Shown here piece by piece: positions 6,445 through 38,600 of a stretch of DNA of 64,000 bases. Origin of the DNA: Octopus vulgaris (Eukaryota); the NCBI GenBank assembly GCA_951406725.2, contig OX597828.1:66402001-66466000 (forward strand), in the 5' to 3' direction. How positions within the stretch are numbered: the first letter of the stretch is position 1; every line of letters begins with the position of its first letter. The notes beneath the pieces are model-generated. The model ran no database searches and was not told the DNA's origin. It saw nothing but the letters and a program-made list of their open reading frames with translations. Both the position numbers and the translations under genes were made by a program.

Positions 6445-6658
6445 TCTTTTGCTTGTTTCAGTCATTTGACTGCATCCATGCTGGAGCACTTCGTTAAAAG
6501 GATTTTGGTTGTTGAAGAAATCAACTCCAGGTCTTATTCTTTGTAAGCCTACTACTTTATTCAATTGGTCTCTTAGCTGAACTGCTAAGCTAAGTGGAAG
6601 TAAACACATCAAGATTGGTTGTCAAGCAATGTTGGTGGAAACAAACACAGACACACAC

Positions 6659-6704
<46 letters not shown>

Positions 6705-6872
6705 ATACATACAACAGGATTCTTTCAGTTTCTGTCTTTCAAATCCACTCATAAGGCTATGGTTGGCCTGGCGTTATAGTAGAAGACACTTGCCCAAGGT
6801 GCCATGCAGTGGGACTGAACTTAGAACCATGTGGTTGCGCAGCAAACTCCTTGCCAGAGCCACGCCTGCACC
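6445..6872 (-). mobile_element. SINE family B, near full length with internal microsatellite
   Basis: Head at ~6870, CORE-like motif, tail ..CAGTCAAATGACTGAAACAAG. Other copies at 19110-19865(-), 36895-37690(-), 38620-39040(-), 45545-45700(-), 45744-46140(+), 46985-47300(-), 48365-48495(+), 55525-55895(+), 57900-58612(+). Confidence 0.8.
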
Positions 6873-6877
6873 TATAT

Positions 6878-6910
<33 letters not shown>

Positions 6911-7248
6911 TATACACACACACAGAGTCTGGAGCTCTGTTCAGTAACCAAATTGTTCATTGCTAGAGTAATTGAAATACATATAAATAGGGGTAATTCA
7001 TTCCAAGCCAATCACAAGTTTCATGTAACGGTATGAAATACTTTTATTTGTCCATCCAGCAATAGTAAATACATAAATATATACATACACTTGCGTCGGA
7101 AATTAATTAGCACTTCTCAAATTTCTACATTTTCTTACATTTTCTTAATTTAATTAACTTATTATCAGAAACGAACTCATTTTTAATCAAAAATTTATTA
7201 AAACATACCCCAGGACACCACATAATTGTTATTAATCGTGAAATTTAG

Positions 7249-8244
7249 TCAATATCTTGTTGCTCCTCCTTTGGCAGCAATGACAGCTGCTACGTGGGTC
7301 GGCATGCTGTCTATGAGTGCCTGCAGGTACTGTGCAGGGATGGCCCCCATGCAGCAAGAAGTGCCCCAAACAGCTCGTGTCGGTTCCTGTATTGTTGCAC
7401 ATTCAAATCCCTACCCAATCGACTCCAGAGGTTCTCAATAGGGTTCAGGTCAGGTGACTGGCCAGGCCAGTCCATGACCGTCACCCCATCATCCTTGAAG
7501 AAACCGGTTGTGAGCTTGGCTGTGTGGGAAGGCGCATTGTCCTGCTGGAGCAGTACTCCTCGCCACCAAAGAGGTATCCCGTACTATCTCAACGTACTTT
7601 GCTGCGTTGATGTTGCCTTCGACGGCATAGAGCCGCCCAACACCACTGTAGCTGAACGCCCCTCACACCATCAGACCACCCCCACCTTGCTTCATGGTGG
7701 GAGCAATGCAGTCTTTGTTGAAGCGCTCACCCCTGCGGCGACGCACATGGACAGGCTTGTCACTGACGAGACTGAATCGCGACTCGTCAGTGAACATCAC
7801 TGTCCGCCACTGCTGCACGGTCCATGTCTTGTGGGCACGGGCCCAGAGCAGCCGCCTCTTCCGGTTTTGGGCTGTAAGGAGCGGCTTACGGGTGGCCCTA
7901 CAGGATTTTAGACCAGCTTCCAGTAATCTGGTCTTGACAGTGGTTGTAGACAACTGCTTCCCTGTCATCTTTTGCATCTCCTCTGCCAGTTGCCGGCTCG
8001 TTACCCTTCGGTTGTACAGTGACTTTCGGATCAGCATCCGGTCCTCCCGCTGGGTCGTCAGCCTCTTCCGTCCCCTACCCTTTTTGTCAGCTGCTGATCC
8101 GGTTTCCTCATATTTCTTAAATAAGCACTGAATTGTGCACCTGGCTACACCAAGTTTTCTGGCTATTGCAACCTCCGACAGCTTCCCACGCCACGAGAGA
8201 GCCTTGTACCGTCTCTCCAAGGTCATGCGAGGTCTTGGGCCCAT
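7249..8244 (-). pseudogene. Tc1 transposase, inactivated (W->TGA and frameshifts)
   Basis: Paired HTH, GRGRKR, WRTVMFTDES, GGGGLMV*GAFS, QQDNAPSHTAK..WPGQSPDLNPIE with 34 residues between D and E. Ends ..AAKGGATRY*. Confidence 0.92.
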
Positions 8245-18969: not shown

Positions 18970-19427
18970 CAATGCATCCCGGCGGTGCCCGGGTGTTATG
19001 ACCTACAAGTGCATTGTATTATTTGCTCCTTTCTTATGGGCAGAATCGGCACAGCTGATATATAGTTAATGGAATAATGGAAGTTATTTTTTGTTTAATA
19101 GTGAAGGACTGTTTCAGTCATTAGACTGCAGACATGCTCTATAGAATTTTAGTCATATGAAGTCTGGAACTTATTCTACAGGTGTCTTTTGCCAAGCCAC
19201 TAGGATATGGGAACATAAACACACCTAATACTAGTTGTCAGGTAAGTGATAGGAAACAAACACAGGCACAAAGACACACACATACATACTAGGGGCTTCT
19301 TTTAATTTAATTTCTGTCTTCCAAATCCACTCACAAGGCTTTTGGTTGGCCCAAGAGTATAGTGGAAAACACTTGGTCCAAAGAACCCAGACCCGTGTGG
19401 TTGGGCAGCAAACATCTTACCACACAT

Positions 19428-19842
19428 ATGTCTTTATTACCCACAAGGGGCCAAACATAGAGGGGACAAACAAGGACAGACAAATGGATTAAGTCGATTA
19501 CATCGACCCCAGTGCGTAACTGGTACTGAATTTATCGACCTCGGAAGGATGACTGGCAAAGTCGACCTCGGTGGGATTTGAAGTCAGACCGTAAAGACAG
19601 ACGAAATACCTATTTCTTTACTACCCACAAGGGGCTAAACATAGAGGGGACAAACAAGGACAGACAAACGGATTAATTCGATTACATCGACCCCAGTGCA
19701 TAAGTGGTACTTATTTAATCGACCCCGAAAGGATGAAGGGCAAAGTCGACCTTGGTGGAATTTGAACTCAGAATGTAACGGCAGACGAAATATGGCTACG
19801 CATTTCGCCCAGCGTGCTAACGTTTCTGCCAGGTCGCCACCT
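19428..19842 (-). mobile_element. SINE family A dimer nested in SINE family B
   Basis: Two tandem bodies, flanked by duplicated CTTACCACACA. Confidence 0.85.
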
Positions 19843-31070: not shown

Positions 31071-31739
31071 CAACTTTTTCCCGTCTTCTATGGGTAAATA
31101 CCCAATCTCTCTCTACTGTATTTTAAGCTATACTGTATTCGAAATTTATTATTATTATTATTTTGTCTGTAAAATACCAAATTTCCAAAGTTTGTTTATA
31201 AAATGTTCTCACATTCGAAAAGCTATTATTTAGCATTAAAATTGACGATTATTGTTGCCAGGGGCCGTTTAGCTTAATGGTTTGAGTACTCAGCCGATAT
31301 CTGAGGGGTACGGGTTCAACACTCCCTGTAGCTGTCTGCTGGCAATCTTTCTTTGCAATTTTCACACCTATACTACGTTCAAAATTGACTTTCTTGTCTG
31401 TACAACACATTCGGCACTTCCAAAGCTTGTTTACTATATATATACTGTAAGTATTAGACAAATAACTGTCTTTAAATTCGATATCTTCGTGAACAGAAAA
31501 TGAGGGATCTATAGGGCTAATTTTAATTCCGCTTTGGGATTTTAGCGACCGAGTACCGTCATCAACTATCCATGGAAACACTGATTAGAAGCCTATTATT
31601 ACTGAGAGTTTCAACAGTTGTTGAAGAAATCTCAAAATAGGAATGAAACCTGTTCGGTTTATCCTTCTTTTTCTGCTCACAAAATATTCTTTATAGAAAC
31701 ATGATATTGATATCTGCCTATTACATATAGTCCAAAATA

Positions 31740-31855
31740 AGAAAAACTTAAAGACGAAGCGAAAGAACAACAAACAGGGTTTATTGGGTTTAAGTTCAAG
31801 AAAAATGGAAGAAGTCTTTAACGTTTCGAGCCTACACTTTTCTACTGAAAGGATA
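31740..31855 (-). mobile_element. Penelope pLTR-like fragment with degenerate minimal hammerhead (family HD)
   Basis: Minus: CTTT-CAGTAGA-A-AAGT GTAG GCTC-GAAAC-GTT-AAAG. Related to 48200-48330. Confidence 0.55.
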
Positions 31856-32289
31856 TAGTCTTGGTTAAAATCTATAGTTATACCCTCCTTTACAGAATAA
31901 TCATATTTTACTTCAGATGTCATAGATTATCGTGTTACATATACAATCAACAGTTGAAGAAGTATAGTCGAAAATCATAAACATTTAATTTATGATAGCC
32001 CAATGTTATGTATTTGGTGTAAAAGAAACGAGACGGTGCAGAAATGGAATAAACTTGAAGTGTAATGTATGCATACTCACGATATCTCGGAAAATAAATA
32101 CAAATGAATTCACATTAAAAGTGCTCTACTTCATGAAGAATTTTAATAAAATCTGACTATCTTTACATGACTATATCTTAATATTATATGAATGTTAATG
32201 CCTCAACACAGCTCGATATCTTGAGGTTGAACAAATTAAAATATGTGTACAAGTAAGTAGATTGATAGATACATACATACATTTAACTT

Positions 32290-32885
32290 AGACATTTCTA
32301 CCAACGTAGTTAGGAGCTTCCTGTCGTTAATAAAGAAACATTTCCCTAAAGCCCATAAGTATTACAACTCTTCAACCCCCATAGCGTCAAGGTAAGCTAC
32401 TCCTGCTTAGACAACATTGCACGCATCAACAGACGTAAAAGCGCACCCACACAACCCCCAACCCCAACCTGAAACTTCTGAAACCCTACCACCTGCCCTC
32501 TTGGAGGATCCTGCCTCTCAAGGGCTATAGTATACAGAGCCACCTTTCACCATCAGATGGTATTACTAGGCACTACACGAGTATGACAGTAAATAATTTC
32601 AAGGGAAGACATTCTCATCACTTGCATTCATTTAGATCCAGGGACAGAGAGAGAACTTCACCTGCCTGTCACGCTTTCTCTGGAGACTTCGTGACCTTCG
32701 AGACGAAACACCTAGCATCAAGTGGACTATTATCGGCAGGGTGCCACCATATTCATCCGGCGCCGCTAATTGCCGGCTGTGCCTCCGCGAAAAACTACAT
32801 ATCATCTACCAACCCGCACTATCCATCAGCAAGAAATATGAGGTATCATATTGCTGTCACCCTTCTGATAAATTTCAAGCCACTA
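32290..32885 (+). pseudogene. Penelope-like element remnant (Naiad-like): thumb, Zn finger and GIY-YIG endonuclease
   Basis: STNVVRSFLSLIKKHFP..LFNPHSVKVSYSCLDNI; CPLGGSCLSRAIVYRAT; YTSMTVNNFKGRHSHHLHSFR; IKWTIIGRVPPYSSGAANCRLCLREKLHI. Several frameshifts. Confidence 0.82.
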
Positions 32886-33231
32886 GCCGCCGACAACCCA
32901 GATATGTCTCCTTTGTACCAGCCATTCCTAGCACCGCCTTTACCAATTAAACCCCATGGACAGCATCGCAAATCATCGACGCCTAGTACTTCCCCACGCC
33001 TGTCTATGCGCATACTCTCACCCCTTGTGCACGACCACACGAGTGTATGTGTGCGTGCACACGCACGTGCGTAAGAATATTCTTTCTTCTTCTTCTTCTT
33101 ATTATTATTAGCGGGTGATTGCCGAATATTCTTACTACAAATAAATAGCTGTCAAGTACTGGAGGCGATGTAATTGACTAATTCCTTCCTCTTAAAATTG
33201 CTAGTCTTGTGCCAAAATCCGAAACTGTTAT

Positions 33232-36044: not shown

Positions 36045-36730
36045 GCCCAGGTGTATACAATCATGTATACAAGAGAAAGATGACGTCTATGGACCATTGA
36101 TAAGGAGTTTACAAATCCAGTACCCAAGATACACTTTCAGTTTCATACCCATTATCATCGGAACAACAGGATACATACCTATTTCTTTACTACCCACAAG
36201 GGGCTAAACACAGAGAGGACAAACAAAGACAGACAAATGGATTAAGTCGATTATATCGACCCCAGTGCGTAACTGGTACTTACTTAATCGACCCCGAAAG
36301 GATGAAAGGCAAAGTCGACCTAGTCGGAATTTGAACTCAGAACGTAAAGACAGACGAAATACCTATTTCTTTATTACCCACAAGGGGCTAAACATAGAGG
36401 GGACAAACATGGACAGACATAGGTATTAAGTCGATTATATCGACCCCAGTGCGTAACTGGTACTTAATTTATCGACCCCGAAAGGATGAAAGGCAAAGTC
36501 GACCTCGGCGGAATTTGAACTCGGAACGTAAAGACAGACGAAATACTGCTACGCATTTCGCCCGGCGTGCTAACGTTTCTCCCATTAGACATACCAACCC
36601 ATAGGAGCAAAGACTGGCTGAACTCGGAATATTGGAGAGAGAGTGCCAATCCTTAATTCATAAGTTATAGATGATCACGATATCTGGAACTATAAAAATT
36701 GCAAGACCTTCTTAAGATTCAAAGGATGAT
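36045..36730 (+). pseudogene. R4/Dong-type LINE 3' end (RLE region) split by a SINE
   Basis: EKDDVYGPLIRSLQIQYPRYTFSFIPIIIGTTGYIP [SINE] ..LAELG..SLIHKL*MITISGTIK..CKTFL. Confidence 0.7.
36175..36580 (-). mobile_element. SINE family A dimer
   Basis: Two ~182-bp bodies with the same junction. Flanking ACATACC duplicated (36173-79, 36589-95). Confidence 0.88.
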
Positions 36731-37118: not shown

Positions 37119-37181
<63 letters not shown>

Positions 37182-37287
37182 ATCCAAACAAGAAAACAAA
37201 AAACACAACAACGCAAGGACGTGGAACAAATAAAGTATTATTGGACGCTCAGGAAAGAAGGGAAGAAGGAGGGTTTATATATATATA

Positions 37288-37617
37288 GTCCGAAAACATA
37301 AATCCGAAAAAAGAAGCACACAGAATAAATTATAGAGCAGTATATATTAAAGTTAGATAAGGCTGGTTTAAGGGATTACCTTAGGTTTCACGCCCATAGA
37401 GAGCTTAGCTTTATGACGTATCATTAGATCCCAAAACCTGTTGGCTGAACGCCTCTCTAGTATATATGGAGAGATACACTGTTGCATATTACATATTATA
37501 GAGAGGCCTTCAGTCAACCGGTTTTGGGATCTGATGATACGTCATAAAGCTAAGCCCTCCATGGACGGGAAACCTAAGGTAAACCCATATACCGATCTAT
37601 TCTAACTTTAATATATA
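37288..37617. mobile_element. Fold-back element family HC with hammerhead motifs on both strands (copy 1)
   Basis: ~135-bp inverted arms. Plus motif 37526-37586, minus motif 37372-37432. Embedded in (TA)n. Confidence 0.8.
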
Positions 37618-37909
37618 TTTATGTATATATATATATTTCTACGACGAACTTGTTGGAAAACAAAGCTTCTTACCACATACGCACGCCTGCGCCTAAATGC
37701 ATACACGTATATACAGTTTTAAAATGTTTCTATAAATATAAAAACTGACCGTTAACTGCAAAAGGGCTCACTACAAGGGTAGAATATCACATTTCTAATA
37801 CTTTCATTAATTGTGAAATGAAATTTCGCAACTGGTAGGCTTTGTCAGACGACGAAACTTCGAAGTCATAATAAAAATTATACATATACACAAACACGGA
37901 TAATACCTA

Positions 37910-38076
37910 CACACACACACATATATATAGGTATGTATGTATATACATATATATATATATATACATATGTATGTATATACATATGTATGTATATACATAT
38001 GTATGTATATACATATATGTATGTATATACATATATATGTATGTATATACATATATATACATATGTATGTATATAC

Positions 38077-38107
<31 letters not shown>

Positions 38108-38108
38108 C

Positions 38109-38200
<92 letters not shown>

Positions 38201-38249
38201 ATGCATATATATATATATATGTATATATCTATATCTATCTATCTATTTA

Positions 38250-38282
<33 letters not shown>
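37910..38282. repeat. Compound TA/TACA/TC microsatellite
   Basis: Directly visible. Confidence 0.95.
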
Positions 38283-38287
38283 CGTTT

Positions 38288-38600
38288 GTATTAAACATAA
38301 ATTCGGAGAGGCACACTCTAAATTGTAGAGCAGTATATATTTTAATAGGGAAAGCCGGCTTATGGGATTACCGTGGATTTCCCGTCCGTAAAGGGTTTAT
38401 CTTTATGGCGTATCGTCAGACCCCAAAAATCTGTTGGCCTATGACCTCTTCAAAATATGGAGAGGGGAGGGGTCCACCTCCATATATTGAAGAGGTTTTA
38501 GGCCAACGGGTTTTTGGGATCTGACGATACGCCATAAAGCTAAACCCTTCATGGACGGGAAGCCCACCGTAAACTGGTCTACTCCATTAATATAATATAA
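38288..38600. mobile_element. Fold-back element family HC (copy 2)
   Basis: Same architecture. Minus motif 38364-38424, plus motif 38516-38575. Confidence 0.8.

Follow-up and report, generated by a model that had tools for sequence, protein, structure and literature searches.

Two palindromic elements of about 300 bp, lying roughly 1 kb apart in (TA)n of the Octopus vulgaris genome, raise the question of what kind of genetic unit carries a hammerhead ribozyme motif on each of its strands. An earlier note had found them reminiscent of viroid-like RNAs, had considered the fold-back as the mobile unit, and had named a DNA transposon as the alternative. We addressed the question in the window that contains them, a stretch of 64,000 nucleotides (contig OX597828.1, positions 66,402,001 to 66,466,000), and among related copies in the 2.8-Gb assembly that we searched. 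Our results indicate that the two elements, E1 and E2, are very probably separate, old insertions of the 3' end of a Hydra-clade Penelope-like element, doubled head to head, likely during integration. Positions below are those of the window unless another locus is named.

Two fold-backs with a hammerhead motif in every arm

Both palindromes are present as had been described: E1 spans 37292-37617 and E2 38284-38592, they are spaced 992 bp apart, and TA runs flank each of them (Table 1), masking any target-site duplication. E1 folds at -168 kcal/mol (z of -19.95 against dinucleotide shuffles, none of 100 equally good) and E2 at -154 kcal/mol (z of -19.09, none of 200), and a transcript across either is predicted to form a duplex of 101-124 bp with uninterrupted helices of 20-36 bp. 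The arms within an element differ at 12-16% of sites, and the elements are asymmetric, with a tail on the left arm of each that is absent from the right arms. Contigs of four other runs were compared with E1; those of two, X19 and X20, cross its junction and differ from it at 4 positions over 133 nt, which indicates that this insertion is shared beyond the assembly. Pieces of a further run, X1, whose identity as RNA is a guess, fall on the E1 arms and could derive from any copy of the family.

Table 1. Positions of the parts of E1 and E2 in the window
Feature	Position	Strand	Remark
E1 tailed arm	37292..37471	-	5'-truncated 3' end (3' UTR piece, pLTR, tail), subfamily S3
E1 tail	37292..37340	-	~50 nt, only on tailed arm
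E1 left hammerhead motif	37372..37432	-	broken by G5-to-A
E1 junction	37472..37491		minus strand is further 3' UTR of tailed arm (by eye, against the 3' UTRs of L088 and L091)
E1 inverted tail-less arm	37492..37617	+	terminates in TA repeat
E1 right hammerhead motif	37526..37586	+	core complete, A-A mismatch in helix I
E1 right motif, predicted cleavage	after 37581	+
E2 tailed arm	38284..38462	-	subfamily S2
E2 tail	38284..38333	-	~50 nt, only on tailed arm
E2 left hammerhead motif	38364..38424	-	core complete, helix III weak
E2 left motif, predicted cleavage	after 38369	-
E2 junction	38463..38472
E2 inverted tail-less arm	38473..~38592	+
E2 right hammerhead motif	from 38516	+	broken by A15.1-to-G and an 8-nt deletion

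All four arms contain an outward-reading hammerhead motif of type I, in agreement with the earlier note. The two motifs it had singled out as best preserved, E1 right and E2 left, do have complete cores, although the former has a mismatch in helix I. Its description of one core mutation in each of the other arms holds for E1 left but understates the damage in E2 right, where a substitution is joined by a deletion that takes out the 3' strand of helix I. Across the larger family, the core (CUGANGA, GAAA, and UH, with helices I-III) is complete in 85 of 191 arms. Hammerhead numbering, and the harm of changes at G5, G8, and A15.1, are in part general background. Positions C3 and G8 are given in PMC11167929. 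Rfam returned no match for the window at the gathering score, and no hammerhead among the 75 matches at E values up to 10.

Helix III, a near-palindrome of 9 nt (4 bp, A, 4 bp), is of the dimer type. A monomer cannot form the innermost pair, which closes a loop of 1 nt; among the 191 arms this pair is U-A in 132, C-G in 29, C-A in 7, and U-G in 5. The change between U-A and C-G is a single event between subfamilies, but it fits pairing between two copies, for which the modeled self-duplex (-8.2 kcal/mol, compared with +0.4 for the forced hairpin) points the same way. A cross-dimer between helix III of E2 left and that of E1 left was rejected, as the duplex reaches only -2.3 kcal/mol and both motifs are held in rods.

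The earlier note had also proposed that a transcript of either polarity would contain a ribozyme and fold into a long double-stranded rod. Both the motif and the rod are indeed predicted, but the two are mutually exclusive. For isolated arms, the cost of forcing the hammerhead fold is 4-9 kcal/mol in three cases and 19 in the broken one, and inside the whole element it rises to 66-84 kcal/mol, so that the hairpin is predicted to keep the hammerheads of E1 and E2 from folding. Whichever strand is transcribed, the antisense arm emerges ahead of the sense motif, and the rod should therefore win. Since each element has one site per strand, a unit-length RNA would not be released. If transcribed, the rod is a plausible substrate of ADAR or Dicer, as had been suggested.

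Several other features of the window were recorded. The 3' stub of another very-high-copy repeat (37178-37277, minus strand) adjoins the E1 tail, and fuller copies of this repeat elsewhere (L132, L141, L156) have a hammerhead-like motif with a palindromic helix III just upstream, often with C at position 4; it is likely a second Penelope-type end. At 32282-32950 (plus strand) lies a decayed endonuclease-end remnant of another Hydra-like Penelope (tblastn E of 6e-16 to the 717-aa protein described below). The open frame at 7249-8244 (minus strand) resembles the N-terminal half of a Tc1/mariner transposase. An interspersed repeat of 184 bp forms two-copy tandem arrays at 36175-36546 and 19427-19792, and adjacent open frames of 111 and 113 aa at 31249-31926 (minus strand), which are not simple-repeat-like, are possibly an exon or an element remnant.

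The arm as the 3' end of a Penelope-like element

The E2 and E1 queries yielded 1761 and 1716 first-look candidates in the assembly, 40 of each being scored. A 23-nt helix II pattern had 191 exact matches, compared with none for the reversed control; given that copies are several percent diverged, we estimate the family at roughly a thousand arms. Analyses of the motif used 191 non-redundant arms that span it, drawn from all loci collected, which diagnostic sites divide into subfamilies S1 (117 arms), S2 (41), and S3 (33). The left arms of E1 and E2 belong to different subfamilies, S3 and S2, and we therefore regard the two as independent insertions. By rule, the E1 right arm scored as S1, because one diagnostic site has changed and others are poorly aligned; by eye it has the 3' end of S3. 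The E2 right arm was left out of the set owing to its deletion.

What the arm belongs to can be read from copies in which it runs on into coding sequence. In three one-arm copies (L038, L043, L059), the sequence upstream is the C-terminus of an endonuclease. A longer natural element, L061, has in order an inverted arm, a frameshifted reverse transcriptase, the endonuclease, a 3' UTR, the arm, and the tail, and the tailed arms of E1 and E2 align to its 3' end at 77% and 84%, respectively. The arm was present at 6 of the 10 loci around the top reverse transcriptase matches; it lies in sense orientation after the open reading frame (ORF) in L088, L089, L091, L092, and L094, as in L061, and an inverted arm stands at the 5' end of L061, L064, L089, and L094. 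Both types seen in the window have ORF-linked counterparts: the S3 marks of the E1 tailed arm recur in L088 and L091, and the S2 helix III variant of the E2 tailed arm recurs in L041/L064. L044 shares this variant. At L093, the tail continues straight into the 5' start of the element, a continuation to be predicted were the tail the beginning of the following tandem unit. At ~5065-4930 of L093, a Penelope copy of this family has an arm of the fold-back family and an unrelated repeat nested in its 5' part.

The assignment to the Hydra clade is based on motifs and on hand comparison with reference proteins printed in a published supplement. That clade is defined by RWK, DKT, a CxCX5C linker, and an endonuclease CxxC (PMC8557442, section 11). 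All four motifs are found in L061 and subsets of them in other decayed copies, decay being common to every copy of the family that we found. Two hand-counted stretches of L061 match the printed Hydra-1_Obim protein at 62 of 90 and 37 of 48 residues. Pfam gave no significant match for five L061 fragments; for an intact 717-aa relative in L086, whose residues 9-717 align to L061 at 37-54% identity, Pfam gave only GIY-YIG below the cut-off (E of 0.018), and the PDB gave no structure match.

Two candidates for the source or identity of the arm were rejected. The 717-aa family of L086/L087 has a different pLTR and no match to the arm, and the pLTR of Hydra-1_Obim differs, by eye, in its printed 3' end and hammerhead, which makes the window family its sister. 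The literature on Penelope elements, hammerheads, and octopus RNA editing yielded no paper on this family, in a search that left Repbase, Dfam, and most subscription papers outside. The window arms thus apparently belong to an uncatalogued sister family of the Hydra clade.

The L086/L087 family is a young-looking Hydra-type Penelope family (G000:C1:57208000-57224500) with intact 717-aa frames, arranged as a tandem array with a spacing of ~2.58 kb plus one inverted copy, and it has many near-identical matches genome-wide; in its 3' hammerhead-like motif, C replaces U4. A separate observation concerns an Asn/Ser/Thr-rich low-complexity insert within the endonuclease region of L061 (positions 6500-7080 of that locus), seen also in L064 and L059, which resembles the N-rich inserts described for Adineta Penelope elements (PMC3846280).

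One tail, variable junctions, and the origin of the fold-back

To what extent the fold-back is a unit was examined in 69 loci picked by pattern, namely, 29 of the 30 first matches (L113 was excluded because it is the second arm of L112) and 40 of 70 other listed places, those skipped being loci already collected or partner arms, mostly of fold-backs. A head-to-head partner was present at 46 loci. Exactly one tail was found in 41 of these pairs, none in 5, and two in no pair. Measured from C3, outer ends concentrate at two fixed points separated by about 50 nt (51 of 115 between +80 and +89, and 39 between +128 and +138), and inner ends spread from -419 to +99. In 43 of the 46 pairs no more than 25 nt separate the arms, and these 43 show 42 different junctions. 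A zone from -45 to -30 is favored (26 of 86 arm starts), the inner-end positions of the two arms differ by more than 10 nt in 27 of the 43 pairs (with a median of 16), and the longer arm may be the tailed or the tail-less one, by up to hundreds of nucleotides. The motif is whole on both arms in only 25 of 46 pairs, and 7 of the 69 loci reach the ORF region. A TA run follows the tailed end in 24 of 39 cases, compared with 231 of 2,070 random windows. Because junctions differ from locus to locus, we conclude that every insertion creates its own fold-back, and that the fold-back is not the mobile unit, a possibility the earlier note had proposed to check.

The divergence of paired arms tells a similar story. 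In 54 of the 56 pairs with both motifs, the arms belong to the same subfamily (45% by chance), and identity within pairs is 83.6%, compared with 81.8% to other arms of the same group. Paired arms share 33 minor alleles (control mean of 12.4 and maximum of 23 in 300 draws) against 428 differences. This combination of one subfamily per pair with near-independent divergence implies that both arms came from one source lineage at insertion and then decayed separately. Some conversion or fold-back copying between arms may have occurred, judging from the shared alleles; concerted evolution was rejected, as arms find their best match in their partner in only 5 of the 56 pairs.

The hammerhead core is not clearly protected after insertion, and decay is near-neutral. 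Substitutions affect 53 of 1,330 core A/T sites (4.0%), compared with 180 of 3,426 outside the core (5.3%; p of 0.07), and 52 of 571 core G/C sites (9.1%), compared with 295 of 2,660 (11.1%; p of 0.18). Both cores are intact in 10 of the 56 pairs, where independent decay predicts 11.1. At the core CpG, harmless changes outnumber harmful ones (43 to 22; p of 0.013), and three other CpGs are balanced (36/31, 36/30, and 23/33). The skew would suggest some selection, most simply explained by source elements that carried the harmless variant. Genomic copies showed no A-to-G excess as a trace of edited templates (A>G 0.021 and T>C 0.033 per site, sense strand). No tandem array of the hammerhead-bearing unit was found in the window, and one of the 69 loci (L185) has a direct-repeat pair.

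Biochemical work on another Penelope element suggests how such insertions could form. The PAc element of the anole has been shown in vitro to cut AT-rich DNA, to cut and extend both strands, and to initiate reverse transcription at two sites, one at each boundary of the tail; the hammerhead of PAc requires the protein and is dispensable for insertion (PMC11167929). By analogy, both nicked strands of a TA-repeat target would each prime a short reverse transcript, one cDNA starting at the far site (tailed) and one at the near site (tail-less); both would stop early, and their inner ends would then be joined. The hammerhead of the source element may have worked as a dimer in tandem transcripts, and that of the stump would be silent, with the antisense arm transcribed first and pairing with the sense motif. 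Helix I can be extended by ~30 imperfect bp (window 37400-37617 and family alignment); its base, near the favored junction zone, may be a stop for reverse transcription.

Other origins of the fold-back are conceivable. Were it a non-autonomous viroid- or retrozyme-like RNA, with the hammerhead of each polarity processing circular or multimeric forms, one could expect a motif on each strand of a stable rod, and this is what the locus shows; the prevalence of head-to-head pairs and, at the core CpG, the small surplus of harmless over harmful changes also lean that way. Yet 42 of 43 junctions are distinct, 21 of 46 pairs have no whole motif on one arm, and both cores survive together no more than chance allows. 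A single site per strand, moreover, cannot free a unit-length monomer, the hairpin imposes the fold cost given above, and the window contains no array of the unit. With the arm placed at a Penelope-like 3' end and cores that decay independently, we regard the viroid-like reading as hardly credible. There is even less to be said for a miniature DNA transposon (MITE) with a fortuitous hammerhead-like motif, the chance of which we consider negligible: short palindromic repeats in a TA context and in many copies resemble one, but the termini are unequal owing to the one-sided tail, length and center vary, and the arm runs on into a reverse transcriptase and endonuclease ORF. The host might also have recruited the window copies as regulatory elements that act through editing, small RNAs, or self-cleavage. 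Their long, near-perfect duplexes, the presence of E1 in two other runs, and the unusually high hyper-editing and dsRNA potential of octopus, together with the heavy editing of a lizard Penelope (PMC5625713), are compatible with such a role. The last two considerations make editing plausible as a by-product. However, the arms differ at 12-16% of sites, family pairs diverge nearly independently, two of the four window cores are broken, and no adjoining host-gene exon was identified among the open frames, a comparison that is not a gene prediction. Co-option of these copies is accordingly very unlikely.

A different kind of alternative keeps the Penelope origin and derives the inverted arm from self-priming or fold-back copying of one cDNA or of an antisense template. 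Self-priming from an antisense template has been proposed for head-to-head repeats with junction palindromes (PMC3846280), and both the excess of shared minor alleles and the short gap between most arms speak for it. Against it stand the offset of the inner ends in most pairs, the finding that either arm may be the longer one, and the two fixed points at which outer ends fall. We consider self-priming possible but doubtful; it alters the mechanism only, and the identity of the elements is unchanged. Returning to integration from two primed strands, we tentatively offer a wider proposal, which we judge less likely to be right than wrong in its full extent: the one-tail rule may record a paired reaction of a Penelope reverse transcriptase dimer, in which each target strand is primed from a different one of the dimer's two start sites, and the hairpins so produced, which make up two thirds of the loci sampled from a family that we estimate at a thousand arms or so, may feed the unusually high dsRNA and A-to-I editing load of octopus. 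Two fixed 3' ends, a strict one-tail pattern, and variable inner junctions constitute a data set that constrains models of Penelope integration, and hairpins of this short, perfect type could, if transcribed, account for part of the heavy RNA editing in octopus.

Comparison with known systems

The window family has much in common with Hydra-1_Obim of Octopus bimaculoides, as represented by the printed sequences and supplement of PMC8557442. Shared features include RWK, DKT, CxCX5C, and CxxC, a C-terminal endonuclease, (TA)n targets, and a 3'-end hammerhead whose palindromic helix III has 4 bp and a 1-nt loop, a layout listed for Hydra hammerheads in File S2 of that paper. Residue identity is ~70-77% over the two hand-counted stretches, and by eye the tail looks similar to the 5' start printed for Hydra-1_Obim. 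In contrast, the 3' UTR and hammerhead sequences differ from the published consensus, helix II is longer and has a bulged A, and the pair beside the core is A-G or A-U, not G-C. The window family also has the Asn/Ser/Thr-rich endonuclease insert, and the copies found are decayed. Its tail of ~50 nt is longer than the 30-40 nt reported.

The layout of the insertions likewise has precedents. An inverted, 5'-truncated pLTR with a one-sided tail is known for endonuclease-bearing Penelope elements (PMC3846280; PMC8557442, Fig. 2), and the complex insertions of such elements resemble E1 and E2 in being head to head, in having a tail on one arm, and in their microsatellite target; E1 and E2 differ in being truncated to a 300-bp hairpin without an ORF. 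A hammerhead on each strand is recorded for Penelope-13_HM (Files S1 and S2 of PMC8557442). Minimal hammerheads occur in the pLTRs of Penelope-like elements (PLEs), with dual motifs on opposite strands 100-700 bp apart (PMC4209133). The window motif is like those of metazoan PLEs in being type I, with a long helix II, an unpaired nucleotide after A9, a palindromic helix III, and opposite-strand pairs. It differs from them in that G10.1-C11.1 is not the first pair of helix II.

Non-LTR retrozymes and viroid-like circular RNAs are similar to the window elements in having a type I hammerhead and no protein, and a preprint derives animal retrozymes from the pLTRs of PLEs (bioRxiv 10.64898/2026.07.22.740005). 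Unlike retrozymes, the window elements have no tandem direct repeats of the unit and have one site per strand. Earlier publications on Penelope elements already describe inverted pLTRs, tails, (TA)n targets, and hammerhead pairs on opposite strands. E1 and E2 follow a known insertion layout and belong to a known retroelement clade, within which their own family, a sister of Hydra-1_Obim, is apparently uncatalogued.
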